64,000 bases of DNA from a virus, in IMG/VR virus record IMGVR_UViG_3300009163_000025, positions 1-64,000 of that record. The stretch is one strand, 5' to 3'. A program made the translations under genes and the position numbers. This document shows positions 7,478-52,217 of this stretch, in pieces (within the stretch, counting starts at the first letter, position 1; each line of letters begins with the position of its first letter). The notes under the pieces are model-generated. The model had not been told where the DNA came from and ran no database searches. It worked only from the letters and a program-made list of their open reading frames with translations.

Positions 7478-8023
7478 TTAAATTCTTTCTTTTCTGTTTT
7501 CATAATGTTTAGTCCTATAGAATACATGATCACCAATTTGAACAACTTTCACAGCATGTCTAGCCCAATCAGGTTTGACATATGTTGCGTGGAAATGTGT
7601 TGCTCCCTCTAATAGACTAATTATAGCAGTATCCTTCGATTTTGTCAAGAGCATCTTCGCCACATCATAGCATTCTTTCCATAGTGCTACATTGGGTGGA
7701 GACTTTACATTACCACCAGTGTACCAAGAGAACTGTTGTGGTTCGGTGACAACCGCTTGTATTGTTTTTGGAAATCTATTGTCCTTAAGACGATTAAGTG
7801 TAACGATACCAACTGCAATCTTACCAATGAGTGGTTCTTTACCTGCTTCGTAGTAGATGTTCATTGTTAACCAGTATAGGTCTGCTTTTGATCCATCGTT
7901 ACTTGAAATTAAATCTTTGTATGATATATTTGTTTGTTTTTTATCTTGAGCATATGTTTGATTTGACATTGCCATTAAACAGATAAGTACAAATACTCCA
8001 ACCTTTTTTAAGAAGGTTCCCAT
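7478..8023 (-). CDS. Cell wall hydrolase, SleB/Hydrolase_2 family
   Basis: Signal peptide; NIYYEAGKE, AVGIVTLNR, QFSW, GATHFHA.YVKPDW, IGDHVFY. Confidence 0.9.
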   Translation of the reverse strand: MGTFLKKVGVFVLICLMAMSNQTYAQDKKQTNISYKDLISSNDGSKADLYWLTMNIYYEAGKEPLIGKIAVGIVTLNRLKDNRFPKTIQAVVTEPQQFSWYTGGNVKSPPNVALWKECYDVAKMLLTKSKDTAIISLLEGATHFHATYVKPDWARHAVKVVQIGDHVFYRTKHYENRKERI

Positions 8024-8100
8024 ATTTTCCCCTTTCGTTTAATGAGGTGCTGTTGTAGCACCTCTTACGCACGTAGAATGCGTCCCACAAAAAATGTGGA

Positions 8101-14838: not shown

Positions 14839-15856
14839 TTTGTTGAATCCTCATTTCACTTTCGCACATATCAAACACCAAGTCTTTGAATGTATACTCT
14901 GGTGTCCAACCCAAAACAGTTTTTGCTTTAGTGCAATCACCAAAGATCGTTGGCACTTCTGCTGGACGATAAAAGTCTTTGTTCACTTTGATGATAGTCT
15001 TACCCGTAGACTTATTGATGCCGACTTCATCTAAACCTTCACCACGCCATTCAATTTCAAATCCAAGATATGTCGCAACATCATTACAGAAGTCTTTTAC
15101 TGAATGCTCTTCACCACTAGAGATTGCATAGTCATCTGGTTTGTCTTGTTGCAGAATCAACCACATCGCACGAACGTAATCTTTAGCATGTCCCCAATCA
15201 CGCCTTGCTGTTAGATTTCCTAGTTCTAGAATATCTTGCAAACCGAGATGAGTGCGAATCATACCTAGTACAATTTTACGTGTAACAAATTCAGGACCTC
15301 TACGTGGGCTTTCGTGATTAAACAAAATACCATTGCATGAGAATAGATTAAAACTTTCACGATAGTTTACTGTGATCCAATAACCATACATCTTAGCAAC
15401 AGCATAAGGTGAACGTGGATAGAATGGAGTGTTTTCTGTTTGTGGAGTTTCTTTTACCTTACCATACAACTCACTAGTTGATGCTTGATAAAATTTGACT
15501 TGCTTTTCTTTGGCCAATCGTTTGACTGCTTCAAGCAATTTGAGTACGCCAAGAGCATTAACATCACCCGTATATGTTGGGCAATCATAACTTACGCTAA
15601 CGTGGCTTTGTGCGCCTAAGTTATAAACTTCATCTGGTCGCACTTTGATAACAATACTTTCAAGATTAGCCGCATCTGTTAGATCGCTATAGTGAAATGT
15701 AATTCGATGTTTGATATGGTTGATGTTTGCAGTATTGTTTCCTGTACTTGATCGGCGTACAAGACCATGCACATCATAACCTTTTTCAAGTAGAAGTTCT
15801 GCTAGGTAACTTCCATCTTGTCCTGTAATACCCGTAATCAAGGCAGTTTTTTGCAT
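14825..15856 (-). CDS. gmd: GDP-mannose 4,6-dehydratase
   Basis: ITGITGQDGSYLAE, YQASTSELYG, PRSPYAVAK, RDWGHAKDYV. Confidence 0.97.
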   Translation of the reverse strand: MQKTALITGITGQDGSYLAELLLEKGYDVHGLVRRSSTGNNTANINHIKHRITFHYSDLTDAANLESIVIKVRPDEVYNLGAQSHVSVSYDCPTYTGDVNALGVLKLLEAVKRLAKEKQVKFYQASTSELYGKVKETPQTENTPFYPRSPYAVAKMYGYWITVNYRESFNLFSCNGILFNHESPRRGPEFVTRKIVLGMIRTHLGLQDILELGNLTARRDWGHAKDYVRAMWLILQQDKPDDYAISSGEEHSVKDFCNDVATYLGFEIEWRGEGLDEVGINKSTGKTIIKVNKDFYRPAEVPTIFGDCTKAKTVLGWTPEYTFKDLVFDMCESEMRIQQNGNT

Positions 15857-15884
15857 ATTGTATTCATCCTATTTTATTGTGAAA

Positions 15885-16215
15885 TTAGTGACAGGTTATT
15901 CTGTTACGAGGAAACCTGTCGAAACCCTAAGCCGAGTTTAGGCGGCTAATGCGAAACGTGAGTCGTTTGCGTTTACTTTTTTTGCTTGATTAACGGTCAT
16001 CGCCTACCGTGCTGTCCACTCTGTTACTTGTTGCCCTGTCGAATCTAGATCAAGCCCATCATAAAAAGAATAAAAAAAACCAAAATAATAATACTCACTA
16101 CCCCGCAGGTATATTGGTATTTTACTTCAGGATCCATATAGTCTCCTTATGGTGGACTTGGGGGGATTCGCACCCCCGTCCAGGTCACTTTTCTCTTTGC
16201 TTCATACAGCAATAA
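15885..16215 (-). ncRNA. ssrA: Two-piece (circularly permuted) tmRNA, tag ANDSRFALAA
   Basis: Acceptor piece ends ...GGGGGTGCGAATCCCCCCAAGTCCACCA at 16150; coding piece starts GGGCTTGATCTAGATTCGAC at 16057; acceptor stem GGGCTTG/CAAGTCC has the G3:U70 Ala identity pair; tag ORF 15970-15938; outer ends approximate. Confidence 0.92.
16045..16137 (-). CDS. 30-aa single-TM peptide in the tmRNA intervening segment
   Basis: AGGAG SD 5 nt before ATG; MDPEVKYQYTCGVVSIIILVFFILFMMGLI*. Confidence 0.55.
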   Translation of the reverse strand: MDPEVKYQYTCGVVSIIILVFFILFMMGLI

Positions 16216-16216
16216 C

Positions 16217-16420
16217 TTACTCTCTACCCCATTTGATTTTCAACCAAATTCGTTCATGTATATAGTAGTCAACACTTAGCATAATATGCAATGCAGTTGC
16301 AAATCCAGTAGCATTACCTATATCACCGGTAAACAAATAAGTCCAAAAAATTGTAAACGCCCATGCAGTAACACGATATGTTAACATTCTCACTACGGTT
16401 CTTTTCTTTGTTTCAATCAT
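16217..16420 (-). CDS. DUF2061-like small membrane protein
   Basis: ET.KRT......YR....YY.HERIW.KI.WG pattern. Confidence 0.75.
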   Translation of the reverse strand: MIETKKRTVVRMLTYRVTAWAFTIFWTYLFTGDIGNATGFATALHIMLSVDYYIHERIWLKIKWGRE

Positions 16421-29603: not shown

Positions 29604-29677
29604 TGGCATCCCGCCAGGGATTCGAACCCCGATCAACGGTTTTGGAGACCGCTATGTTGCCTTTACACTAGCGAGAT
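29604..29677 (-). tRNA. tRNA-Trp(CCA)
   Basis: Cloverleaf, loop CTCCAAA, encoded CCA. Confidence 0.9.
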
Positions 29678-29679
29678 AT

Positions 29680-29754
29680 TGGTGGGCTTAAGTGGATTCG
29701 AACCACTACCTTATCAATTATGAGTTGACGGCACTACCTTTATGCTATAAGCCC
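29680..29754 (-). tRNA. tRNA-Ile2(CAT), probably lysidine-modified
   Basis: Loop CTCATAA, GGGCTTA acceptor with paired 1:72; Ile2 versus Met assignment is inferred. Confidence 0.75.
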
Positions 29755-29757
29755 AAT

Positions 29758-29842
29758 TGGTATGAGTAGCCGGAATCGAACCGGCATGCCTTGCGGCGAG
29801 AGATTTTAAGTCTCTTGCGTCTACCTATTTCGCCATACTCAC
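29758..29842 (-). tRNA. tRNA-Leu(TAA)
   Basis: Loop CTTAAAA, long variable arm, CCA. Confidence 0.9.
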
Positions 29843-31111
29843 TCAACTACCATCATTTGCGATTTGAAGCCTCAACTCTTGCAGTTGGTGTAAGGTAATT
29901 TTATCGAAAAATCCATAGCCGAAGTGTGTATCAGAATCCATGATTTTAAAATTCTTTTCGTTGAAAACAAAACTTAGCGATCTGTAGTAATTTCTTGAGT
30001 CACCAAAACGCATTGCATGAATGAAATCATGAAACGCATCACTTTCTTCTAAGATTTTTTGCGCTGGTTCTTTAATTCCATTCCAGAATGGTGTATCGTG
30101 AATACTGCCATCACGATACATGTATGCGATAACAGTAGCAACATTATTAATTTCAGCAGATATTACCGCATTTGCTCCTTCTTTTGATCCACCATATGCA
30201 ATATACCCAACAATTGCACGATTGATTGTGTCATATAAGTGTAGTGAATTTGCAAATAGCGGTTCGAAAAATACAGCACGATTACCATTCTTAAAAATTC
30301 TTTTACCAATAATTTGTTTAGCACGATATGAATTGAATTTGTATTCAATATTTTGCAACTCTTCTACAGGAACACCAATCTCTTTAGAGAAATTTTGAAG
30401 TGCTTCTTCTTTCGTTGTTATTGTATCATTAAAAAGATATCCATAACTTTTTCTATTGGTTAATGGCACACCAAACATCCATCCATCCGGTGTCGCTCTA
30501 TGTAATGTATATTTCCATCCTTCTTTATCATCCTCTTGAACATTATGAACAAGGCAATGATTGACTGTTTGAACGGGCATCAAACTGTAATCTTCATATG
30601 ATTTTGGAAACCCACGACAATCTACAACAAAATCGTAATTGTGTTCTTCACCATCGATAACCATAGTGACTTTATCATCATGCTCCGTCATTGAATCGAC
30701 TGTACCAACTACTTCTTTAAATTTTTCACGCCAAACTTTTTTGAGTCTAGGTATTGCAAATTCTCTAAGTTTAAATGTATTAAAATGAATCGCCGCACTA
30801 CCATTAATTAATGGATTGTGAAAGTCGTGTTCACGCCAATTTTCAAATTTTGTTGTTAGTTTTAATGTTGCGTCTAATTCTTCTAAATTATCATACAAAT
30901 TAAATCGTGTACCATATTCAAGCGCAGTAATGAATGTTGGATTTGTACTCTCACCAATTCCTACAATAGGAATAGATGGATCATGAATTGACACAACCTC
31001 AAATTCAAGCCCATCAAGCCAAGCAAGAAAAAAAGATAATGACTGAATGCCAGCACTACCAGTTCCAATAACTGCAACTTTTTTCTTTATGATTTCTTTT
31101 ACACTATGCAT
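29843..31111 (-). CDS. Flavin-dependent tryptophan-halogenase-family protein
   Basis: GTGSAG, VGIGEST.P, AT.K, VDCRGF, GWMFGVP, FFEPL. Confidence 0.8.
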   Translation of the reverse strand: MHSVKEIIKKKVAVIGTGSAGIQSLSFFLAWLDGLEFEVVSIHDPSIPIVGIGESTNPTFITALEYGTRFNLYDNLEELDATLKLTTKFENWREHDFHNPLINGSAAIHFNTFKLREFAIPRLKKVWREKFKEVVGTVDSMTEHDDKVTMVIDGEEHNYDFVVDCRGFPKSYEDYSLMPVQTVNHCLVHNVQEDDKEGWKYTLHRATPDGWMFGVPLTNRKSYGYLFNDTITTKEEALQNFSKEIGVPVEELQNIEYKFNSYRAKQIIGKRIFKNGNRAVFFEPLFANSLHLYDTINRAIVGYIAYGGSKEGANAVISAEINNVATVIAYMYRDGSIHDTPFWNGIKEPAQKILEESDAFHDFIHAMRFGDSRNYYRSLSFVFNEKNFKIMDSDTHFGYGFFDKITLHQLQELRLQIANDGS

Positions 31112-31136
31112 TATTTCTCCTTAACGAATTTTATAA

Positions 31137-31742
31137 TTATTCAACTTTTTTCATCGTATTAAAACTAATAATCACTCTATTCTTAGTTTGATTTTGTTCA
31201 TAGTTTGACCCATGCTTTAACCAACTAGGAAAGAATAAAATATCTCCCGCACCAACTTTAATAGTCCAAAGATCGACAGTATACATTGTTTTGATTTTAG
31301 TTGGTGTTAAACATTTTATTTGATTCAATGGCGCATCAAATGTTATACCTGTACTATCCTCATCAACATTAATGTATATAGCGGCTGATGCCCAACTATC
31401 TGGATGATAATGTTGTTTTAAAACGCTACCTTCATGCTGTATTGCATACCATGAATTTGTGATAGCCAATCGATACATTCCAAATTTTTCTGCGTATTCA
31501 TTAATGCCATTTTCAAGAAATTCATACAGCCCATGACAACTTGGAATATTTTTTTCTAATTCTTGAATGAATAATGTTTCTTCAAGATAACTTGTCCTAA
31601 CGTTTCCAGTTAAAGTGTCGTGTGAAGTGCCGTGTGGTTTTGCCATTATATATTCAAATATATCTTTTCGGCGCTGTTCTTCAATGACACCTCTGTGCCA
31701 TCTAACCAAAGTTGGGAATATATCAAAGTCTATTGTTTCCAT
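31137..31742 (-). CDS. 2OG-Fe(II) oxygenase (TIGR02466-like)
   Basis: HxH..S..SA..Y, FFPSWL.H, R..ISFN. Confidence 0.85.
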   Translation of the reverse strand: METIDFDIFPTLVRWHRGVIEEQRRKDIFEYIMAKPHGTSHDTLTGNVRTSYLEETLFIQELEKNIPSCHGLYEFLENGINEYAEKFGMYRLAITNSWYAIQHEGSVLKQHYHPDSWASAAIYINVDEDSTGITFDAPLNQIKCLTPTKIKTMYTVDLWTIKVGAGDILFFPSWLKHGSNYEQNQTKNRVIISFNTMKKVE

Positions 31743-31743
31743 A

Positions 31744-32265
31744 TCAAACGAAAAATGTAAATGTTAATCGGGAATCTTCAATTGTAGTTCCAAAAAATCT
31801 TTGTGGACGATGAAGTATATTCTTATATAGCACAAGTCGGTTAAATTTATTTTCAACTACAATTTCTTTACCATTTGAAACCAAAATCGTTCCACTATTA
31901 GGTTCAGGTGTTTTATTTAGATAGATCACACCAGCACAAGAACATTGATCTGTGTGCCACCAATGCCGAACTGGTATATCATAATTAGCAAATTCTGGAA
32001 TGATTGCAAGATATGCACTTGCCTTTGTGTAATCGAATTTAACTGACTTTGATACTATTTGTTTCAATGTATCAATTTGAGTCTTACTGATATCCGTAGA
32101 ACGATATCCACGCCACATTGCAGGCGGCCGTGAAGGTTCATTGGAGTCAATTTGAACTCCATCAATAATCCTGTCTTCAAATGTATAATAAGTTGCAATC
32201 CTTGAAAGTGCGACTAATTGATCTGGATCAGATAAAATGTTATCAACTACAATATAATCATTCAT
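31744..32265 (-). CDS. DUF6445-like 2OG-Fe(II) oxygenase-fold protein
   Basis: HTD, AGVIYL....GT, FNRLVLY...H, RLT.TFF. Confidence 0.65.
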   Translation of the reverse strand: MNDYIVVDNILSDPDQLVALSRIATYYTFEDRIIDGVQIDSNEPSRPPAMWRGYRSTDISKTQIDTLKQIVSKSVKFDYTKASAYLAIIPEFANYDIPVRHWWHTDQCSCAGVIYLNKTPEPNSGTILVSNGKEIVVENKFNRLVLYKNILHRPQRFFGTTIEDSRLTFTFFV

Positions 32266-32270
32266 AATTA

Positions 32271-32345
32271 TGGCCCGACCTGAGGGAATCGAACCCCCAT
32301 AATGACTTTAGAAGAATCATGTCCTATCCGTTGAACGAAGGTCGG
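32271..32345 (-). tRNA. tRNA-Arg(TCT)
   Basis: Loop CTTCTAA, CCA. Confidence 0.85.
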
Positions 32346-32352
32346 AATAAAT

Positions 32353-32426
32353 TGGAGCGGGATATGAGAATCGAACTCATAACTGAAGTTTGGAAGACTG
32401 CCGTTTTACCACTAAACTAATCCCGC
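32353..32426 (-). tRNA. tRNA-Gly(TCC)
   Basis: Loop CTTCCAA, U73, CCA. Confidence 0.9.
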
Positions 32427-32429
32427 AAT

Positions 32430-32504
32430 TGGTGGAGATGGAGAGAATCGAACTCTCAATTTCTGGTTGCAAACCAGATGTGTTCCCATTAGCACTACAC
32501 CCCC
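32430..32504 (-). tRNA. tRNA-Ala(TGC)
   Basis: Loop TTTGCAA, G3:U70. Confidence 0.9.
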
Positions 32505-33086
32505 TTAAATATCTTTCTTAACGTAATGACAATTAATTGCAATACTCAATCTATCTTCATCACTACGATTTTCATTTACATAATGCATTAGCCAACTAGG
32601 AAAAATCAAAAGTGTTCCTGCGTTAGGTGCTACAACAAATATACTGCTGTTGAATTCATTATAACTACTAATAATTTCGTCGGAATAAGAATGCAATGCG
32701 GCCGCATTTGGTGTTGTAAATTCTATAGTTCCAAATTCTTTTTTTCCTATTGGATAATAAACCGCACTAAAAAAAGAAGTTGGATGTGTATGAGGTTTGC
32801 TTGTTACATAACAATTATTTATTGTACACCAAGCCTCTCTAATTTTTAAAAAATATTCATCACTAAATCCATATCGTTTGTATACTTCATTAAATTTATT
32901 TTCAACATGATCGAATAAGTCTTTGATAACACCACTAACATTTTCTTGTCTTATCCAAGATTGATGATCCGACATACGATTTTTTTCTGTGATAAGATTT
33001 TTACGACAAAAATTAACAATTGACTCATTGTCCAATGATAATTGATCCACCGCTAAAAATGTTGTAAATATGTTCGTATATTGCAT
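32505..33086 (-). CDS. 2OG-Fe(II) oxygenase (TIGR02466-like)
   Basis: HTHP.S.FSAVYY, IFPSWL.H.V, RLSIA.N. Confidence 0.85.
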   Translation of the reverse strand: MQYTNIFTTFLAVDQLSLDNESIVNFCRKNLITEKNRMSDHQSWIRQENVSGVIKDLFDHVENKFNEVYKRYGFSDEYFLKIREAWCTINNCYVTSKPHTHPTSFFSAVYYPIGKKEFGTIEFTTPNAAALHSYSDEIISSYNEFNSSIFVVAPNAGTLLIFPSWLMHYVNENRSDEDRLSIAINCHYVKKDI

Positions 33087-33106
33087 AAATTCCCCACAAA
33101 ATAAAT

Positions 33107-33180
33107 TGGTCTCGATGGCAAGAATCGAACTTGCGCCTCATGGTCCCAAACCACGAATGATACCATTTCACCACACCGAG
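33107..33180 (-). tRNA. tRNA-Pro(TGG)
   Basis: Loop TTTGGGA, C1:G72, CCA. Confidence 0.9.
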
Positions 33181-33213
33181 TTTTCTCTATTATACATCAA
33201 TCTGCTATCAATG

Positions 33214-33957
33214 TCAAAGCAAATTGATTATATTCTTTACCAGACTGTCTACGTCATTTCTTGTTTTGCCGCCAAGAACAACAATTGCAAATCTGTCTTC
33301 TCTTTTATGTACAATCATCACAACGCATTTACCAGCAAGATTTGTTGTTCCGGTCTTGGACATTTCAATCACATCAAATTTAGATAACAAATTTTTATTT
33401 GTGCTATTGATTTCAATCAATCGCTCTCTATTCTTTTTATCATACACATGAAGATCATATTCACGCAATGATGCAATTTCTTTTATCTTCTCAATGTTAT
33501 ACGCATAATTCAGTAGTGTAACTAACTCAACTGCATTACTCACATTCTTTGGACTCAATCCAGATGGGTCATCAAACTTTGTATTAACCATTCCTAACAT
33601 TTCTGCTTTACGATTCATTTGATATACGAACCATGCTTTACCATGATTGCTATCTGCTAATGCATCGGCTGCCTTGTTGTCACTTTTAACTAATAACAAA
33701 TTCAACAATTCTTCTCTAGTAAATTTTTTGCTAGAGAAAAACATTCCCCTATATGTAACTTTCTCATCCAATGGCAGTCCACTCTCCATGATAACAATAG
33801 CAGTCATCAATTTCGTAATACTTGCAATTGGTTTTACATCATAAATTTCAGAGTCAACTATTGGAATATCTTTTGTTATGTTATGTGCGTAAACTGTTAT
33901 TGCATTTGCATTCATACACATAAAAACTGTGAGTATGCAATATAGTATTTTTTTCAT
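33214..33957 (-). CDS. D-alanyl-D-alanine peptidase, peptidase S11 (PBP5/PBP7-like)
   Basis: SxxK (ASITKLMT), SxN (SDN), KTG motifs; signal peptide. Confidence 0.9.
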   Translation of the reverse strand: MKKILYCILTVFMCMNANAITVYAHNITKDIPIVDSEIYDVKPIASITKLMTAIVIMESGLPLDEKVTYRGMFFSSKKFTREELLNLLLVKSDNKAADALADSNHGKAWFVYQMNRKAEMLGMVNTKFDDPSGLSPKNVSNAVELVTLLNYAYNIEKIKEIASLREYDLHVYDKKNRERLIEINSTNKNLLSKFDVIEMSKTGTTNLAGKCVVMIVHKREDRFAIVVLGGKTRNDVDSLVKNIINLL

Positions 33958-33967
33958 ATTTACTTTC

Positions 33968-34042
33968 TGGTACCTTGTGACAGGATCGAACTGCCGACCT
34001 TCTCCGTGTAAAGGAGTTACTCTACCGCTGAGTTAACAAGGC
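33968..34042 (-). tRNA. tRNA-Val(TAC)
   Basis: Loop TTTACAC, CCA. Confidence 0.9.
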
Positions 34043-34047
34043 GTTAT

Positions 34048-34121
34048 TGGTGCCCCTTGACAGAATCGAACTGCCGTAACCTGATTACAAAACAGGCGTA
34101 ATACCATTATACTAAAGGGGC
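34048..34121 (-). tRNA. tRNA-Thr(TGT)
   Basis: Loop TTTGTAA, CCA. Confidence 0.9.
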
Positions 34122-34140
34122 TCATACTTTATATATCTAT

Positions 34141-34214
34141 TGGCAGAGGGTACAAGAATCGAACTTGTGACAACGGAATCAAAATCCGTGGTTATACCAT
34201 TTAACTAACCCCCA
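34141..34214 (-). tRNA. tRNA-Gln(TTG)
   Basis: Loop TTTTGAT; U1:U72 mismatch; CCA. Confidence 0.88.
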
Positions 34215-34219
34215 ACATT

Positions 34220-34309
34220 TGGTGGAAGCGGTGAGATTCGAACTCACGGACCCTTTCGGATCGACAGTTTTCAAGACTGTTGCCATAAACCTGACTCGAC
34301 CACGCTTCC
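34220..34309 (-). tRNA. tRNA-Ser(TGA)
   Basis: Loop CTTGAAA, long variable arm. Confidence 0.9.
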
Positions 34310-34315
34310 ATTAAT

Positions 34316-34390
34316 TGGCACCCAATGAAGGAATCAAACCTCCAACTCCTCGTTCGTAGCAAGGTGTGATATTCATTTCACTAATCGGGT
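34316..34390 (-). tRNA. tRNA-Arg(ACG)
   Basis: Loop CTACGAA; variant T-loop TTTGATT. Confidence 0.85.
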
Positions 34391-34393
34391 AAT

Positions 34394-34476
34394 TGGTGCC
34401 CCAAGAGAGACTTGAACTCTCACGCACTAGGCACTGGCTTCTAAGACCAGCGTGTCTACCATTCCACCATCGGGGC
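34394..34476 (-). tRNA. tRNA-Leu(TAG)
   Basis: Loop CTTAGAA, long variable arm. Confidence 0.9.
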
Positions 34477-34484
34477 AATATACT

Positions 34485-34558
34485 TGGTACCCAGTAGAGG
34501 TATCGATCCTCTGATTAACGCTTATCAAGCGTTTGTTATACCATTTAACTAACCGGGC
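34485..34558 (-). tRNA. tRNA-Ile(GAT)
   Basis: Loop TTGATAA; T-loop ATCGATA. Confidence 0.85.
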
Positions 34559-34563
34559 ATATT

Positions 34564-34639
34564 TGGTACCGACTTCAGGTTACGATCCTGATTCTCTGGT
34601 TTTTCAAACCAGCGCAATGACCACACTTGCTCAATCGGC
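34564..34639 (-). tRNA. tRNA-Phe(GAA)
   Basis: Loop TTGAAAA; T-loop ATCGTAA; 5' end overlaps the stop of the upstream CDS. Confidence 0.82.
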
Positions 34640-35215
34640 AGAACCATTTCCGTTCTTAAATCCTACTACACCACCTTCTTCTTTGATGCGTTTGATAACG
34701 TCTTCAAAAAGAATTGGCGTGTAATCTGTTTGTTCTACACATACACAATAGTATCTTGGATCGGGAACTGGAACACCATACTTACCTACTGGTTGCATCA
34801 TCACTCTGTTAGAATGTAGATGCCCATGAATGTTCACACCGAATCTTCCAAGACTGTCTACGTGAATAGGAATGTGAGAAAGAATCATTCCGTTCATTAC
34901 ATGATAAGCACGTAACTCTCTAAAATATTTTCTATACTCATCATCACGAAAAATATCGTGATTACCACGAATTAAAACTTTGTCACCATTTAGCCTACTC
35001 ATAATGCCTAGACTTTTACGATTGATAACAACATCGCCTAGATGATAAACTTTATCGTTAGGGCGAACTCTATCATTCCAGCGCCTAACCATTTCTTCAT
35101 CCATCTCATCTGCATTATCCCATGGACGTAGTTTTGTCACACCATCATTACGCATGAATCTACACACACCAGTGTGACCAAAGTGTGTGTCACTAACTAA
35201 AAATACTGATGGCAT
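34631..35215 (-). CDS. Calcineurin-like phosphoesterase
   Basis: SDTHFGH, YHLGD, GNHD, SH.P, HGHLH. Confidence 0.9.
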   Translation of the reverse strand: MPSVFLVSDTHFGHTGVCRFMRNDGVTKLRPWDNADEMDEEMVRRWNDRVRPNDKVYHLGDVVINRKSLGIMSRLNGDKVLIRGNHDIFRDDEYRKYFRELRAYHVMNGMILSHIPIHVDSLGRFGVNIHGHLHSNRVMMQPVGKYGVPVPDPRYYCVCVEQTDYTPILFEDVIKRIKEEGGVVGFKNGNGSAD

Positions 35216-35229
35216 ATATTACTCCTTTG

Positions 35230-35304
35230 TGGGGTGTCTAATGAGGATCGAACTCATACGGAGGGAATCACAATCCCTAATGCTACCACTACATCATAGA
35301 CACC
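35230..35304 (-). tRNA. tRNA-His(GTG)
   Basis: Loop TTGTGAT, encoded G-1:C73. Confidence 0.9.
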
Positions 35305-35312
35305 ATAAAAAT

Positions 35313-35387
35313 TGGTAGGGGCACCGAGAATCGAACTCGGATTAATAGGTTAAAAGCCTACTACTTTAGCCGTTAAGTTATGCCCCC
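35313..35387 (-). tRNA. tRNA-Lys(TTT)
   Basis: Loop CTTTTAA, CCA. Confidence 0.9.
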
Positions 35388-35391
35388 ATAT

Positions 35392-35466
35392 TGGTGGTTC
35401 AGGTTGGATTCGAGCCAACGACCTACTCCGTATGAAGGAGTTGCACTACCGCTGTGCTACTGAACC
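35392..35466 (-). tRNA. tRNA-Met(CAT), elongator
   Basis: Loop TTCATAC, fully paired acceptor stem. Confidence 0.8.
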
Positions 35467-35469
35467 GAT

Positions 35470-35555
35470 TGGTGGAGAATCAGGGATTCGAACCCCGTAT
35501 ACCTTAAGGTGACAGATTTACAGTCTGCTGAAGTCGCCAATGCTTCTCATTCTCC
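35470..35555 (-). tRNA. tRNA-Tyr(GTA)
   Basis: Loop CTGTAAA, long variable arm. Confidence 0.9.
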
Positions 35556-35561
35556 GTTGTT

Positions 35562-35640
35562 TGGCTCCGAGTAAGAGAATCGAACTCTTCTAACCAGTGA
35601 TTAACAGTCACGCCCATGCACCTTGCTCGGGTTTCTCGGA
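35562..35640 (-). tRNA. tRNA-Asn(GTT)
   Basis: Loop CTGTTAA; enlarged D-arm. Confidence 0.85.
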
Positions 35641-35644
35641 ATAA

Positions 35645-35857
35645 ATGCTTTCTCTCTGCGGCGGTAATTATAGTACTAATGGACTCTGAGGACGTCTGTT
35701 TTACCAGACACTCATACCACGTACCCTCCACCCGCTCCCCGACCAGAGAAAACTCTCGTATTGCCAACGCTACTTTGGTAAGAGTAGTACCACACTTGAG
35801 TAACGAACTCACTTCACTTCCTGCGTGTCACAGTAGCCAGACGTTACTCCAGCGGGT
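35645..35857 (-). ncRNA. Unidentified ~210-nt structured RNA between tRNA-fMet and tRNA-Asn
   Basis: GC-rich, multiple nested and pseudoknot-type pairings; no credible ORF. Confidence 0.65.
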
Positions 35858-35858
35858 T

Positions 35859-35931
35859 TGGTTGCAGGTAGTGGTAACGCTCCACTCTCGCTATGGCTTA
35901 TGAGACCATGCGGGTCCTTGACCTACCTGCG
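35859..35931 (-). tRNA. Initiator-type tRNA-fMet(CAT), atypical
   Basis: Loop CTCATAA, C1:A72 mismatch, A73-CCA; short D-arm, T-loop AGCGTTA. Confidence 0.75.
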
Positions 35932-35934
35932 ATA

Positions 35935-36390
35935 TTACTTTATAACTTGTAGATACTCGTAATTAACTGTATCTTCGTTTTCTCTAAACACTATTGCACC
36001 ATTACGTGTATGAAACCTTTTGGCTAAATCAGTCTTTGGTGATAGTGTCACAAATCGTTTAATGTCTGGATTGTTTTCTTTGATAGATTTTACCGCTTCA
36101 AATATCAATGTGCGACCTGCTCCTGGTGCGTAACTCCATATCGTATAGAATACAGCAACATCTGGCGTATCACAAATCTCAAACAACTCAGATTCTTTTG
36201 TTGGAATCATGTTTTGATAACTAACACATGTCATTGCTTTCACTTCATCTTGTTCATTGCGGAACACAAAGATATCTCTGTTCTTTCCGATTCTATCAAC
36301 GTGAGGAATGTTTGGGCGAACTGGATCGTCAATCAAAAATTCAAAAAACTTATCAGTCAATTCTTTTATAGTACGTATCATATTATTCAT
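35935..36390 (-). CDS. Hypothetical protein resembling the GNAT-fold malonyl-CoA decarboxylase C-terminal domain
   Basis: AVFYTIWS, GAGR.LI, KRFVTLSP motifs. Confidence 0.5.
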   Translation of the reverse strand: MNNMIRTIKELTDKFFEFLIDDPVRPNIPHVDRIGKNRDIFVFRNEQDEVKAMTCVSYQNMIPTKESELFEICDTPDVAVFYTIWSYAPGAGRTLIFEAVKSIKENNPDIKRFVTLSPKTDLAKRFHTRNGAIVFRENEDTVNYEYLQVIK

Positions 36391-36414
36391 TTCTTAAAAT
36401 TATAAATCGTCATA

Positions 36415-36422
36415 TATTTATA
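36415..36422 (-). promoter_or_regulatory. T4-type late promoter inside tRNA array
   Basis: TATAAATA on the minus strand, 24 nt upstream of the 36390 ATG. Confidence 0.55.
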
Positions 36423-36429
36423 TAAAATC

Positions 36430-36505
36430 TGGCGGTCTTAGGGGGTAACGATCCCCACTCTTATGGCGTGACAAGCCATCGTGCGTCCATGAACACTTTA
36501 AGACC
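36430..36505 (-). tRNA. tRNA-Asp(GTC)
   Basis: Loop TTGTCAC, G73, CCA. Confidence 0.88.
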
Positions 36506-36510
36506 AATCT

Positions 36511-36598
36511 TGGCGGAGAGTATCAGATTCGAACTGATGCATCGCTTTCGCAATGACGGTTTAGCAAACCGCTGGTTTAACCACTCACCCAACTCTCC
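36511..36598 (-). tRNA. tRNA-Ser(GCT)
   Basis: Loop TTGCTAA, long variable arm. Confidence 0.9.
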
Positions 36599-36604
36599 TT
36601 TGTT

Positions 36605-36681
36605 TGGAATAGGTGACAGGACTCGAACCTGCATGAAACGGATTTGCAATCCGTAGCCTAACCATTCGGCGACACACCTAC
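36605..36681 (-). tRNA. tRNA-Cys(GCA)
   Basis: Loop TTGCAAA, U73. Confidence 0.9.
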
Positions 36682-36692
36682 GTATCTAATTC

Positions 36693-36820
36693 TACCATTT
36701 GTTTTGCTGACGCACTATTTGCAAAGCCTCAACGGAATTGGTGGCCACACTACCGTTTATTGACAGAGTTACTCAAGGTTGACGTTTACCTCATGGCTTA
36801 CGTCAGCAAAACAAATGGTA
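36693..36820 (-). ncRNA. Unidentified ~125-nt RNA closed by a perfect 20-bp inverted repeat
   Basis: 36693-36712 is the exact reverse complement of 36801-36820; internal hairpins. Confidence 0.6.
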
Positions 36821-36890
36821 CTCGGTAGGGGAATCGAACCCCTCTTTCCGGCGTGAAAGGCCAGCGTCCTAACCGATAGACGAACCGAGC
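36816..36890 (-). tRNA. tRNA-Glu(TTC)
   Basis: Loop CTTTCAC, CCA. Confidence 0.9.
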
Positions 36891-36905
36891 ATTTGACAGG
36901 CAAAT

Positions 36906-36936
36906 TGTTAAAGAACATTTGATTGATTTCTCAATC
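36906..36936 (-). promoter_or_regulatory. rrn-like antitermination signal boxB-boxA
   Basis: Hairpin GATTGA-GAAA-TCAATC (36936-36921), then TGTTCTTTAACA (36917-36906); rrn boxA is TGCTCTTTAACA. Confidence 0.7.
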
Positions 36937-36945
36937 TATGAATAG

Positions 36946-37008
36946 AGTATAACACGATACGCTATCCATGTCAACAATATTTTTTGGTACTGTTGTTTTT
37001 TGTAAACA
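36946..37008 (-). promoter_or_regulatory. Sigma70 promoter of tRNA array with upstream box
   Basis: TTGACA(36974-36969)-17-TATACT(36951-36946); degenerate box 36991-37008. Confidence 0.8.
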
Positions 37009-37009
37009 C

Positions 37010-37044
37010 AAATAAAAATCCCCTAGTTTTTTAGGCTAGGGGGC
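37010..37044 (-). terminator. Intrinsic terminator (attenuator)
   Basis: CCCCTAG-loop-CTAGGGG followed by ATTTTTATTT. Confidence 0.85.
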
Positions 37045-37072
37045 TTTTGTTTGCATTTAAGGTTTTTGGTCC

Positions 37073-37186
37073 TCAGGTGCAAGCCCCCATTCCAGGTGTG
37101 TGGCAATCGGCAATCTCAAAGCGAGAATTACCCTGCCAACTTGATGGCATATAATTCGTCTTTGACTGTACCGATAATAGTTTCAT
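37073..37186 (-). CDS. 37-aa leader peptide containing all 20 amino acids (putative attenuator leader)
   Basis: MKLLSVQSKTNYMPSSWQGNSRFEIADCHTPGMGACT*; TAATG overlap with the mazG-like stop; 3' codons complementary to the terminator 5' arm. Confidence 0.75.
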   Translation of the reverse strand: MKLLSVQSKTNYMPSSWQGNSRFEIADCHTPGMGACT

Positions 37187-37464
37187 TAAATTTTCTCTTT
37201 AGTAAAAATGTCTGACCACGTTTGTAATTTCTTACGTTTGTTTTGTGAAGCCTGTTCTACTTCATCAATGTTGATGATTTTATTTTCAATCATCAATTGA
37301 ATCATGCAAAACAAATCTCCAACTTCTTCTGTTAACCTTTGCCGATTGGTGCGATCCAAATGAACTGCATCAATGCCAAATCGAAAAACTTTGCTAATCG
37401 CTTGTGTCACTTCCGCACATTCTTCCTGTGCAATCAGCAATACTTCTTTTTCGACCTCATTCAT
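37186..37464 (-). CDS. MazG-like nucleotide pyrophosphohydrolase
   Basis: EECAEV.QAISK ... EEVGDL motifs; AAGGA SD before ATG 37464. Confidence 0.8.
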   Translation of the reverse strand: MNEVEKEVLLIAQEECAEVTQAISKVFRFGIDAVHLDRTNRQRLTEEVGDLFCMIQLMIENKIINIDEVEQASQNKRKKLQTWSDIFTKEKI

Positions 37465-37484
37465 TATATATCCTTTTTCTTTCA

Positions 37485-37513
37485 ATTATACACTTGTTCG
37501 AGCAAATTGTCAA
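37485..37513 (-). promoter_or_regulatory. Consensus sigma70 promoter for mazG-leader unit
   Basis: TTGACA(37513-37508)-17-TATAAT(37490-37485). Confidence 0.8.
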
Positions 37514-38396
37514 GAACTTTTTTTGTTTCTTTGCTTGTCGCACCATAAATCTTAAATTGATCTGCTAGTGACATTACGCCTTGAACTAACATTTCTTTCG
37601 GCTCGCCTTTATTGTATTCATACATCACTCGCTTATTCAAGAATGACGCAACCTTTTCAATTACGATTCTTGGAAACTCATCTGTTTTTAAATTCCATTG
37701 ATTAGCACTCAAATCAACACTAATGTTTGTTCGAATCGCAATATTTGGATGCGGTTTATTGATATTCATTCTACAAATTTCCTTACAAGAAAACGTTTTA
37801 CATCATAACACTTTTTAAAATATACTGAAGATCGTTTGTTATTAATTGACAACTTCACTTCAATATTCTTCGGTGATTTCACAACAACTGCACCATAACA
37901 ATTTTTGTTCAACCCAAATGGTATCACATAACCATCACCTCTGTCAAGTTTTTTCTTTGCATATCCGTTTGCGCCTTTGATCTTATCCAAAGCACCAAAA
38001 CGAATTGTGTCCAAAACTTCTACGGCAATAGATTGTCTCGGACCCATGCCTTCAATATACATATTGTTCCTTGTGCTTTGGTTCTCTCTTACGTTTGTCT
38101 TCAACCACACGCATACGATACTTAGGGCTACGCAAGTCCTTTGCTACCATATTACGTGGCTTTGATCTACAAACTTTCACCGTAATCACCATAGTCCTCA
38201 TTTGTTCCCATTCCTGCTGAAGCCATAGCGGAATCAAAATCTCCGTCCATGCTTTCATTATACTCTACATCCATAAAACTTGCAACAAAATCATCTACCA
38301 ATTCTACTGGTATACTAAGCATTGTTGCAATCGTGAATTCATTGTATCCTTGTGTATACAATTGTTCAATCTCCATAGCCAACTCGCTCATCCTAC

Positions 38397-39297: not shown

Positions 39298-40210
39298 GTT
39301 GCAAACATCTTGCGGCCGTCAACCATGAACCGCTCGAATGCTTCCATAGTCTTTTCAGAGTAAACCATCTTACCTTCACGTTGGATATCTTGCAACAACT
39401 CCAAGAAACCCAAGCCTAAAAATTCACGTTCTTTATTCAGAATACCAATTGCTGTTTCGATTTTCATTTTATTTCCTTAATCAAAAAAGTTGCCAGACTG
39501 ACACGAAAATGCATTCTGGCCAGCATCAAACCAAGCCATAGGATGCAAATCTAATTTATCAATCACTTGACGATTGCACATTTCCATCGCATTCAGTTTA
39601 GACTCTGCGGTGAATTCATAAACATCTTTACCAACATAAAATTTGTATGTAATCATATTAAGCACCATAAAAGTCAGAAGTAAAACCACAAGTATTGTAG
39701 ACACATTCCCGAACATCTGTGTCCATTGCTTCACCAAATTTGCTGTAATCATTTTTGGCTAACATGTTGAGACACTTGTAAGTTTCTGGCCATGTCAGGT
39801 TCATTGTTACTGCGGCAACAACAACACCATGAACGGCTAAGTTACCAACTTCGCTAAACATTCCGTAAGAGATATCATGTGATAATGTAGTCATTTTATT
39901 TCCTTAAATCAAATCAACTTGAACTTGCGTACCAACTTGCGAGGTATTGTAACTTGTCATACCAACACCAGTGGGAACCAACGCACCATCTTTTTGTGCC
40001 ATGTAACGCATGTAAGACAAACGCAACAGAGCATCATTGGCCGCTTGTGAATGAGTGTATGTAGCAAACACACTAGACACACCAGCAACGGTGGTGTAGA
40101 CACCAATTCCGTCAAACATCACACGAATTTTCTGTGAATTTTTGAAGCCTTGGATGTAGGTTTTAGTACGCATTTCAAATTTCCTTTTCTTTTCTCAATC
40201 TCTAGACTCT

Positions 40211-40272
40211 AGTATACCACAATGGGTACATATGTCAACAACTATTTTCAATTCTGTTGTTTTTATGCAACT
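40211..40272 (-). promoter_or_regulatory. Early promoter with box
   Basis: TTGACA-16-TATACT; box 40255-40272. Confidence 0.8.
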
Positions 40273-50073: not shown

Positions 50074-50745
50074 TCAATCCCAAAGTGCTTGATAGTATTT
50101 TCCGAACAAACGAAATCCGTTCTTGATTCGTTCCTCAACAATTGCCATGCCGTCATAGTCACATTTGTATGTGTGTTTGGGACCTTCTTCCAATCTAAAC
50201 ATTTTTGGCTTACCATTTTCATCCCACTCACAAGCAACCGACTTATGATCAAATTCACCTGACCGATATCCTTCTTCCCACTCTTTATTGATGTGGTGAT
50301 CGAATGCAAAAATCATTTCATCCATGACCCAATCCCAACGCTTGAAATGGTTGTCATCGGTGTCCCATTCATTTTCTTTTGCTGGCGCTGAAGTAGACTT
50401 CAATTCTTCTGGCACATCTTCATCATCAACAAAAGGCGCACCATGCTTTTTATCTTTCAACTGTTTCAACATAGGCAAAGCAATTTGACCAAGAGTATGA
50501 TCCATAGACCAAGTATCCCAATAGTCAATCTTCACATAGTCAATCTTAGGGTGAATTACATCCAAGACTTTTGCAATCACTTTGCAGATAGGGTCTAAAA
50601 AATTAACCCACTTCTCGTATGGTGCGTTAGGCTTGTCTTCGAGATTATAGAACACATCATTAGTTTTTTCCCAAAAGCAAACAAACTCTAAGATGTGATA
50701 TGGACTTAGCCAGTGATTACGATATCCGCTGATGTAGACTTTCAT
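50074..50745 (-). CDS. Conserved phage hypothetical protein
   Basis: WDTWSMDHTL..I..PML.QL, RWDWV.DEMIFAF, GF.LFGKYY..LWD. Confidence 0.75.
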   Translation of the reverse strand: MKVYISGYRNHWLSPYHILEFVCFWEKTNDVFYNLEDKPNAPYEKWVNFLDPICKVIAKVLDVIHPKIDYVKIDYWDTWSMDHTLGQIALPMLKQLKDKKHGAPFVDDEDVPEELKSTSAPAKENEWDTDDNHFKRWDWVMDEMIFAFDHHINKEWEEGYRSGEFDHKSVACEWDENGKPKMFRLEEGPKHTYKCDYDGMAIVEERIKNGFRLFGKYYQALWD

Positions 50746-52217
50746 ATTGGTTGGTATTCGTTGATTTGTTTAAGGAATTCTTTATGATCTAATGCTTGAG
50801 TTGCAGTCAAAGCATCAATTATTTCTCTATACTCTTGTGGTGATGGACGAACATTCTCAAAGCCCTTAATATTGATAGGCTTTTCAAATATTTCAAGTCC
50901 ATAACCAACTTGAAGATAACTATACAAAGCAAAGTATACATTGATACGCATGTTTGGAATGTTATAGGGACGTAGATTTCCATCTTTAAGAAATGGAATC
51001 AAATTTCTAATATATTCTGGTGGAGGATTTTTCTCCACAAACTCAGTCCAAAATGGGCTATCTTTTCGTTTTGTGAGATAGTGAAAGTATACAAACCCCA
51101 TAGTGTCATCCATGTTGTTTCTTGCAATATCGTTAAACACTTTGATACTATTCTCATCGGGATTGTCAATCTCATTAATGAATTGACGGAAAGTATCTAA
51201 CTCACCGACAGACAAAAAGATAGACGTTGATTCTAATGGTTCAATAAAACTAGAAGACAATCCAACTGCAAGACAGTTTTTGATCCAATAGTTTTCAAAG
51301 CGACCTGGATTCAGATCAATAACTTTACGCACCTTGATTTCTTGCCCTAAGTATTCTTCAACTTCAGCCTTTGCTTGTTCTACTGTGATATAATCGGAAT
51401 CGAAAACATAACCTGCACCTGTACGATGTTGCAGAGGAATTTGCCACATCCATCCATACTTCATTGCAATTGCAGAAGTGTATGGTTTGAGTTCAGTCTC
51501 TTGAATCCAAAATGGAATCGCTTTCTTCATTGGCAGATATTTTGAATACGATACCCATTCGTCTTTATACACTCCACCAATCAACAGTCTAGCCATGCCA
51601 GAACAATCAAAAACAAAGTCTACGGGAACACTACGCCCATCTTCAAGATTCAATGCTTTAATATACTCACGTTCATCTTGTGTTGCGTGAGTATACACAC
51701 CTTCAACAATTTCAATACCACGTTCAACACCTTTTTCGGATAAATATTTTGAAAATTCATTCGTATCGAAATGAATTGCCCATTCCGTTCTATGCAAATC
51801 AATTTTATTATCGTATGCTAGATGAATTTGATAATTGTAATCTTCTAAACTCAAACCTTCAGCAATACATTTCTTCAAAAAGAAATCTTGCCCGTCTACA
51901 CCAAATGTAGGTTGAACTGAGAAGTCTGTGACTTTATCACAAAATCCATGCATGTAACGTTTCTCATCGCCATTCCAATTTTCAAAATTAATTCCACTCT
52001 TAATCGTGCCTTTAGTGCTTCGAATCAAATCGATGATATCAATATTAATTTGCGAAAGAAACGCAACGATGTTTGGTGTTGTCGCTTCACCAACACCAAT
52101 GATACCAATTTCTTTGCTTTGAACGACAGTAATTTTATCATTTGGAAAAACTGTATGTGCATACAATGCAGTCAACCAACCAGCGGTACCGCCACCCAAT
52201 ACTACGATATTTCTCAT
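50742..52217 (-). CDS. Tryptophan 7-halogenase-family protein
   Basis: GGGTAGW, IGVGEATTP, GTIKSGINF, FDCSG, GWMWQIP, FIEPLESTSI. Confidence 0.9.
   Translation of the reverse strand: MRNIVVLGGGTAGWLTALYAHTVFPNDKITVVQSKEIGIIGVGEATTPNIVAFLSQINIDIIDLIRSTKGTIKSGINFENWNGDEKRYMHGFCDKVTDFSVQPTFGVDGQDFFLKKCIAEGLSLEDYNYQIHLAYDNKIDLHRTEWAIHFDTNEFSKYLSEKGVERGIEIVEGVYTHATQDEREYIKALNLEDGRSVPVDFVFDCSGMARLLIGGVYKDEWVSYSKYLPMKKAIPFWIQETELKPYTSAIAMKYGWMWQIPLQHRTGAGYVFDSDYITVEQAKAEVEEYLGQEIKVRKVIDLNPGRFENYWIKNCLAVGLSSSFIEPLESTSIFLSVGELDTFRQFINEIDNPDENSIKVFNDIARNNMDDTMGFVYFHYLTKRKDSPFWTEFVEKNPPPEYIRNLIPFLKDGNLRPYNIPNMRINVYFALYSYLQVGYGLEIFEKPINIKGFENVRPSPQEYREIIDALTATQALDHKEFLKQINEYQPI

Follow-up and report, generated by a model that had tools for sequence, protein, structure and literature searches.

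At the head of a phage transfer RNA (tRNA) gene array, a short open reading frame (ORF) that contains all 20 amino acids runs into an RNA switch between a transcription terminator and an antiterminator. The DNA in question (the window) is the first 64 kb (positions 1 to 64,000) of IMG/VR virus record IMGVR_UViG_3300009163_000025, an 88-kb viral contig with a G+C content of 37%, which is estimated to be about half complete and whose source is an uncultured lake phage. On its minus strand, a mazG-like gene is followed by the leader ORF, the switch and the tRNA genes (Table 1). With a probability of roughly 0.7, this element is a ribosome-mediated leader-peptide transcription attenuator, which would sense the supply of charged tRNAs and gate read-through into the array. 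The anatomy of the element, its conservation, the covariation of its antiterminator helix, the selected completeness of its peptide and the correspondence of leader composition with the content of the array were all obtained by computation. The features by which an attenuator is recognized in sequence are present together: a short ORF, an intrinsic terminator, an antiterminator sharing a strand with that terminator, a suitably placed stop codon, and codons matching what the array supplies.

The proposed mechanism is as follows. A transcript from the promoter at 37513 would carry both mazG and the 37-codon leader, their translation being coupled via TAATG, in which the stop codon of the one overlaps the start codon of the other. 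A ribosome reaching the leader stop codon would cover GGGGGCUU, the CCCCUAG/CUAGGGG hairpin and its U-tract would form, and transcription would end. If the ribosome were stalled earlier for lack of a charged tRNA, or were absent, GGGGGCUU would pair with AAGCCCCC and the terminator would be blocked, allowing RNA polymerase to continue past a boxA-like element into the tRNA genes. With every amino acid in the leader, a shortage of almost any charged tRNA would be expected to raise array transcription; once supply was restored, the array would be turned off again, which would amount to negative feedback on tRNA supply. Slowing of ribosomes at almost any codon thus probably leads the phage to make more tRNA. 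Translation of the leader, a kinetic choice between the helices and the physiological trigger, either starvation or tRNA-cleaving host defences, are the parts of this scheme that we infer.

The switch is built as a sequence-only reading of this DNA had proposed. Strand 2, GGGGGCTT, is complementary to region 3, AAGCCCCC, which overlaps the 5′ arm of the terminator; the arms CCCCTAG and CTAGGGG and the T-run are all in the sequence, and the codon for His29 ends 11 nt before the antiterminator strand. The stop codon (TGA at 37075-37073) begins 13 nt after the first base of GGGGGCTT. The leader region folds well (z = -4.4), and in the minimum-free-energy fold the GGGGGCUU/AAGCCCCC helix is lengthened by UGCA/UGCA, the inner TGCA/TGCA extension of the earlier proposal. 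If the stop-codon region is masked in the fold, as it would be by a terminating ribosome, the 3′ part becomes the terminator. The size of the ribosomal footprint, on which the covering of the strand depends, is established knowledge. A terminator scan listed the same hairpin on the plus strand only.

The leader peptide of the window is MKLLSVQSKTNYMPSSWQGNSRFEIADCHTPGMGACT. The claim that the ORF at 37186-37073 contains 20 of the 20 amino acids by codon 29 was reproduced, and residues 4-29 alone contain them all. In the six frames of the window this is the sole place where 29 stop-free codons span 20 kinds of amino acid. Spans of 32 codons do so at three places (the leader and two others, one of which is read across tRNA-Pro), and spans of 35-40 codons do so more frequently, several of them outside the leader. 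The protein composition of the window gives a probability of 1.3e-4 for 20 kinds in 29 codons with the initial methionine fixed, which is weak once the places searched are allowed for, and one of 3e-3 for 37 codons; composition-matched shuffles of the ORF's own nucleotides gave 8.7e-3 for the whole 37-codon ORF. Given the many places searched, the window by itself provides weak evidence, and luck is possible in 64 kb. The window alone is not decisive; the signal comes from relatives.

Related loci were gathered from viral and metagenome contigs with MazG queries and with two DNA patterns that were blind to ORFs and specified the two helices only. Fits to either general pattern across all loci gathered gave 129 switch-like sites. 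The MazG of locus L113, used as a query, yielded no further member of that lineage. A tRNA gene lies within 2.5 kb downstream at 90 of the 129 sites, and at all 90 an ORF starting with ATG reads across the GGGG strand, its stop codon lying 11-22 nt beyond the first G of that strand. A further 28 sites have 1 kb or more of sequence downstream without a tRNA in it, mostly on G+C-rich contigs or in a gut-metagenome family; 13 of these are without such an ORF and the rest have ORFs of 10-21 codons or the C-termini of long proteins, plus one ORF of 42 codons. Downstream sequence is too short for a judgement at the remaining 11. One G+C-rich family (L235, L244, L249, L257 and about ten more metagenome loci, several of them from gut metagenomes) is unrelated to the tRNA-linked sites; it has a stretch of 57-58 nt after an ORF ending ..WGLV, and no tRNAs.

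The 90 tRNA-linked sites encode 40 distinct peptides, one of which is truncated where its contig ends and a few of which have a doubtful upstream start. All 20 kinds of amino acid are present in 23 of the 40, 19 kinds in 12, 18 kinds in 4 and 15 kinds in 1. By comparison, 966 control ORFs of 31-46 codons were taken from the same loci; a single one of them has 20 kinds, and 31 reach at least 19. Single-linkage clustering at 50% identity divides the peptides into six clusters (33 peptides in that of the window), which are 10-39% identical to each other, and five of the six have members with 20 kinds. Members of other clusters include MMKQTVSIAKPENRMPGNWQVTYHGCAFTIDMGGLT, MTLRNCKPSLHLQPTLGGLAYWSMFANTVINSDRESGGLS and MNMFTQGTPKPQTRTYQRYCGRYVQNLGALS; further cluster members are MQSITLHSRSNCTYAKPFVGSRTPAIWEDQFGGLD, counted from an ATG with a Shine-Dalgarno sequence, and MHLCSKQTVSISWNLRSDEAGYPFISGSCKL, in which the first 24 residues already include 20 kinds. 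In composition-matched shuffles, in which the ATG and the strand codons were held fixed, the probability of 20 kinds for the cluster representatives was 8.7e-3, 1.6e-3, 7.6e-3, 1.8e-3 and 3.2e-4, and 0.68 for the sixth cluster. Fisher's combined P is 1.1e-8 for the six clusters and 1.1e-7 without the window's cluster, which was left out of the second figure because it had been picked for completeness. Within that cluster of the window, the peptide of L103 differs from that of the window at 17 of 37 positions and still has 20 kinds, with Tyr and Cys swapped and Phe, Val and Arg relocated. The completeness of the leader peptide is selected. The sequence-only reading had looked to relatives for a short upstream ORF that keeps its completeness as the sequence diverges, and this is what they contain. 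On the window alone, with P values of about 3e-3 to 9e-3 and several other spans of 35-40 codons reaching 20 kinds, a chance ORF lying beside the terminator of mazG could be argued; the presence of the ORF at 90 of 90 tRNA-linked sites in six clusters, and a combined P of 1e-7 even without the window's cluster, contradict it and make it scarcely credible.

The antiterminator has also been maintained in relatives. In folds of a transcript ending in the terminator loop, strand 2 pairs with region 3 in 12 of 12 representatives, at -15.7 to -28.1 kcal/mol. Covariation was assessed at the two helix positions left free by the search patterns. Among 18 representatives, pair 5 is G-C in 11, A-U in 2, U-A in 2, U.G in 1 and unpaired in 2, and pair 9 is G-C in 10, A-U in 3 and unpaired in 5. 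Covariation scored 0.146, against 0.062 in shuffles, of which 0 of 500 attained that value; slid registers all score lower, and covariation at the free positions is also found in 37 distinct switch sequences. The GGGGNCUU/AAGNCCCC helix thus covaries at these positions. In the 18-sequence alignment, 83% of the cells of the terminator are paired, its presence in relatives having been demanded by the patterns. The attenuator put forward in the sequence-only reading is backed by the completeness of the ORFs in relatives, by this covariation and by the masked folds.

The strand GGGGNCUU (GGGGNCTT) is read in three different frames across lineages, as M-G-A, W-G-L or G-G-L, and thus is conserved as RNA rather than as peptide. 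A second element conserved as RNA lies in the middle of the ORF: a hairpin (UGCCA-N6-UGGCA in the window) whose 3′ arm holds the single Trp codon. Of 39 distinct leaders with Trp encoded ahead of the strand, 38 have this codon base-paired in a hairpin of the same kind, usually 42-58 nt before the strand, with the compensatory variants UGCCA/UGGCA, UGCCAG/CUGGCA, UGUCAA/UUGGCA and UAGGC/GCCUA with CCAA/UUGG. It may be a pause or timing hairpin. A longer hairpin of 25 bp in the window's ORF was dropped as a conserved structure, as its outer stems are broken in relatives while the inner Trp hairpin persists.

Both conserved RNA elements, together with the folding z of the leader region, would suit an RNA switch that is not translated and in which the binding of some factor, whether protein, small molecule or (as in T-boxes) tRNA, decides between the helices; the ORF would then be a by-product. 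This is improbable. The open frame, the ATG and a stop 11-22 nt after the first base of the strand are kept at 90 of 90 sites in six clusters, the length differences between ORFs of aligned relatives are multiples of three, and amino-acid completeness would be meaningless for an untranslated RNA. On 36700-37600, Rfam gave nothing but tRNA-Glu above the gathering threshold, T-box or other, and the T-box covariance model gave no match at E up to 10. Alternatively, the ORF could encode a small protein with a function of its own and the terminator behind it could be an ordinary one of the operon, in which case the alternative pairing would be incidental. The core M-P-x-x-W-Q and some other residues are indeed conserved within the window's cluster; that core coincides with the RNA hairpin showing compensatory changes, the clusters are only 10-39% identical to each other, and the stop is always just behind the strand. 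The leader peptide matched no Pfam family, gene callers almost never call the ORF, and a profile of the peptide found only 3 matches among 75 candidates in a protein database. A small protein is therefore very improbable. The ORF was also considered as a degenerate tRNA or a tRNA-like 3′ end (GGACCA); this was dropped, as no tRNA model matched.

The composition of the leaders follows the content of the arrays, leaders with all 20 kinds preceding arrays that are nearly complete. In the 15 loci compared, every isotype of the array has a codon in its leader. On L314, a giant-phage contig of 333 kb, the locus at 7850-8045 (+) has a leader with 15 kinds of amino acid and a tRNA block directly after it; the block begins 16 nt past the terminator, and no second promoter intervenes. 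The block comprises 8 isotypes (Lys, Pro, Arg, Tyr, Gln, Thr, Cys and Gly), and leader residues 5-23 (TQGTPKPQTRTYQRYCGRY), 19 in succession, are of these 8 kinds only (P 6e-9 for a background share of 0.37). L314, once a counter-example to completeness, was re-read after the comparison of arrays as having a leader specific to its block; L306 was grouped with it as a locus of this type. In the L005 group (loci with at least 9 tRNAs seen), a Phe tRNA is present in 19 of the 22 loci whose leader has Phe following Ser-Arg, and in 0 of the 12 whose leader has Ser (TCA) or Leu at that position; the Ser-type loci have tRNA-Ser(tga) at the place of the tRNA-Phe in others. Fisher's P for the association of Phe codon and Phe tRNA is 8e-7, which is overstated since the loci are related; two joint losses were counted.

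These associations bear on whether the element responds to particular tRNAs or to translation in general. It could be a general sensor of translation activity, in which the arrival of the ribosome, be it affected by shortage, inhibitors or host shut-off, is what counts and the composition of the peptide is secondary. In the truncated folds the antiterminator forms without a ribosome in 12 of 12, so that absence of translation alone would give read-through; some kinds stand at positions where they could not be sensed in 31 of 39 leaders; and attenuators with an upstream ORF (uORF), such as whiB7, answer many translation stresses, according to the accessible part of PMC10274678. Such a sensor would leave unexplained the 20 kinds in five of six unrelated-looking clusters, the L314 leader written in the isotypes of its block, and the loss of the Phe codon alongside that of the Phe tRNA gene, and it is unlikely. 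For the attenuator sensing charged tRNAs, the wider proposition is that many uncultured tRNA-rich phages carry a selected “pangram” leader stocked with every amino acid that the array serves, all 20 for full arrays and only the isotypes of the block in multi-block giant phages, wired to the switch and then to an rrn-like boxA. Codons of the leader would co-evolve with gain and loss of tRNA genes, and the outcome would be a self-correcting tRNA supply that answers starvation or tRNA-cleaving defences. We regard this proposition, taken as a whole, as on balance probable.

Several points weigh against a charged-tRNA sensor. The leader has two Asn codons, and the contig is without a tRNA-Asn. Three leaders containing Phe have no Phe tRNA in the part seen; in L088 / L006 (one contig) the Phe of the leader has become Ile, yet a Phe tRNA follows; and the leaders of L259 and L251 are without Val although a tRNA-Val follows. 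A ribosome stalled at or near the strand would itself mask it, so kinds found only there would not be sensed. If the count is restricted to codons whose last base is 10 nt or more upstream of the strand, where a stalled ribosome would leave the strand free, 8 of 39 complete leaders, including that of the window, have 20 kinds and the others have 11-19; in 31 of the 39, at least one kind (often Gly, Ala or Leu) occurs only within 10 nt of the strand or inside it. The earlier claim that a stall at any codon allows read-through is too strong in view of those 31 leaders. In full-length, unmasked minimum-free-energy folds, the antiterminator is kept in 3 of 12 representatives (the window, L307 and L319) and the terminator wins in 9, so the choice of helix must be kinetic, that is, co-transcriptional, as in classical attenuators. 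Seven of the nine antiterminator pairs were fixed by the search patterns, only pairs 5 and 9 being free. The leader's own Shine-Dalgarno sequence is weak, so that in the window's lineage the leader relies on coupling to MazG. A promoter with at least 10 of 12 matches lies between terminator and array in 30 of 39 distinct related leaders, and was not seen in 9; with a second promoter behind the terminator, the attenuator would be a second input at those loci. Finally, translation of the leader, termination and regulated read-through are predictions from sequence. Seven metatranscriptome runs contain parts of the stretch, as assembled contigs only, and the contigs of four of these runs were aligned to it. 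One contig of 151 nt, identical to 37096-37246, joins the end of MazG to most of the leader; such contigs carry no ends, strand or level and may derive from library DNA, and no weight is put on which parts are covered.

Table 1. Features of the leader, switch and tRNA array in the window (positions in the 64-kb stretch)
Feature	Position	Strand	Remarks
Promoter, sigma-70 type, TTGACA-17-TATAAT	37485..37513	-	12/12 matches; drives mazG and leader
MazG-like nucleoside triphosphate pyrophosphohydrolase gene, 92 codons	37186..37464	-	Pfam and phrog matches
Leader ORF, 37 codons and stop	37073..37186	-	20 amino acids by codon 29
Mid-ORF hairpin UGCCA-N6-UGGCA	37134..37149	-	Fold; single Trp codon in 3′ arm
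Antiterminator 5′ strand GGGGGCTT (strand 2)	37081..37088	-	Within codons 33-36
Antiterminator 3′ strand AAGCCCCC (region 3)	37039..37046	-	Overlaps terminator 5′ arm CCCCTAG (37042-37036)
Intrinsic terminator	37014..37042	-	CCCCTAG, 9-nt loop, CTAGGGG (37026-37020), A, TTTTT (37018-37014)
Second (array) promoter TTGACA-17-TATACT	36946..36974	-	TG-extended, 11/12 matches; between terminator and array
boxA-like element TTCTTTAACAATTTG	36901..36915	-	11 nt before tRNA-Glu, the first tRNA; downstream of both promoters
Array of 23 co-oriented tRNA genes, 19 isotypes	29604..36890	-	ARAGORN; ORFs interspersed

The surroundings of the leader agree in several respects with the sequence-only reading: the promoter at 37513-37485, the overlap of the mazG stop (TAA) with the leader ATG and the separate array promoter at 36974-36946 are all present, and the product of the upstream gene is MazG-like by PF03819 (25.3 bits, cut-off 22) and phrog_4856 (E 6e-24). 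In MazG-linked lineages, the leader ATG lies -7 to +4 nt from the MazG stop in 40 of 40 distinct contexts with an abutting upstream ORF, through the junctions TAATG, TAAAATG and ATGA. Directly 5′ of mazG, a promoter with at least 10 of 12 matches was seen in no more than 8 of these 40 contexts. Five other lineages have a promoter-like site whose end is 6-24 nt upstream of the leader ATG; in L312, L307 and L319 the -10 box ends 6-9 nt before it, and ribosomes may translate these leaders on transcripts that are leaderless or almost so. The promoter type of the array recurs in the window at 40191-40264 (-), upstream of a protein gene, as AAAACAACA..GTTGTTGACA-17-TATACT with TG, and the two copies (40191-40264 and 36999-36927) are 73% identical; this looks like a shared early-promoter module.

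The array itself is smaller than had been claimed. Instead of a complete set of 25 tRNAs, ARAGORN finds 23, in the window and in the whole contig, and Asn is missing: no tRNA-Asn was found in the whole 88-kb contig, by ARAGORN or with the tRNA-Asn genes of relatives as queries. Rfam finds 21 tRNAs, none beyond the 23. The earlier count of 23 of 25 tRNAs used by the leader's codons could thus not be reproduced; the reported absence of AGR stands, as tRNA-Arg(tct), the AGR reader, has no codon in the leader. Two ORFs resembling tryptophan halogenases occur at 29843-31111 (-) and 50742-52217 (-), both matching phrog_2928 and the first also Pfam Trp_halogenase; the first lies inside the array, between tRNA-Leu(taa) and tRNA-Arg(tct).

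The boxA-like element, TTCTTTAACAATTTG, has a single match in the window, and 13 consecutive bases of it, TCTTTAACAATTT, are common to the text of an rrnB boxA primer in PMC2176067; blastn of the stretch against E. coli genomes was without a match at this length. In several lineages, relatives likewise have a similar motif ahead of the first tRNA. The element suggests processive antitermination of the rrn style through the array. At 15847-16242 (-) the window has a tmRNA gene of the betaproteobacterial type, whose product is permuted (two-piece) and carries the tag ANDSRFALAA, a hint to a betaproteobacterial host. In a phage genome collection, searches with the window, L312, L319 and L314 found no relatives of the leader or switch, either as DNA or as peptide, and relatives of MazG had less than 60% identity. 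Thus, no cultured phage can be named as a carrier.

What phages gain from tRNA arrays, and how these are expressed, is an open question; with a feedback sensor in front of the array, a phage would be gauging its capacity to decode and replenishing it as needed. The signal for attenuation would widen from the amino acid of one pathway to the whole decoding set, and what it controls would be tRNA genes instead of enzymes of biosynthesis. Leader codons and tRNA genes apparently co-evolve, as in the joint loss of Phe and in the leader of L314, which would be a rare case of a regulatory “specification” that can be read from sequence. The switch is the directly testable part, at about 180 nt, and potentially a compact reporter for any charged-tRNA shortage.

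The mechanism, leader-peptide attenuation, is a known one; what would be new is a leader with all kinds of amino acid before phage tRNA genes. In the literature outside subscription journals and supplementary files, no account of a leader-peptide attenuator before tRNA genes was found. The attenuators of enterobacterial amino-acid operons include trpL, hisL and pheL and the multivalent thrL and ilvL. These share with the phage element a short translated leader, an intrinsic terminator, a mutually exclusive antiterminator and the choice of helix by ribosome position. Their peptides repeat one to three amino acids in runs, and the operons under their control make those same amino acids, whereas the phage leader has each of the 20 about once or twice and stands before tRNA genes. 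Furthermore, no helix of the 1:2 type was found in the phage leader, unlike in amino-acid operon leaders, so an untranslated phage leader should read through rather than terminate. Leaders of amino-acid operons stand first in their transcript, whereas that of the window is coupled to an upstream gene. The T-box riboswitch, which is untranslated and binds one uncharged tRNA directly, is likewise a sensor of tRNA charging that chooses between terminator and antiterminator; the phage leader, in contrast, is an ORF and matches no T-box model.

Of the enterobacterial leaders, pheL appears in the accessible part of PMC3082878. In Bacillus subtilis, tylosin-dependent stalling operates an antibiotic-responsive leader-peptide attenuator of a resistance gene, as described in the accessible part of PMC6851288; there too a stall in the leader ORF turns on the downstream gene, but the drug acts on a particular nascent peptide, whereas the phage leader would respond to a shortage of charged tRNA. 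The long tRNA operon of Anabaena 7120 resembles the phage array in its output, as an accessory set of tRNAs that is on when translation falters, being induced under translational stress in the accessible parts of PMC8421152 and PMC10272220. Its control is reported there to be via a transcriptional repressor, TrcR, unlike the attenuator proposed for the phage, and in the accessible part of PMC8421152 (2021) “attenuat”, “leader peptide” and “terminator” do not occur. Among the systems in print, the nearest functional parallel is the uORF attenuator of mycobacterial whiB7 (wblC). As given in the accessible part of PMC10274678, stalling in this uORF leads to antitermination and is triggered by the loss of many amino acids, tRNAs or synthetases, with the coding sequence setting what is sensed. 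The two have no sequence relation: in the whiB7 uORF alanine is enriched and the gene under control encodes a bacterial transcription factor, whereas the phage leader is flat and complete in composition and its output would be tRNA genes.

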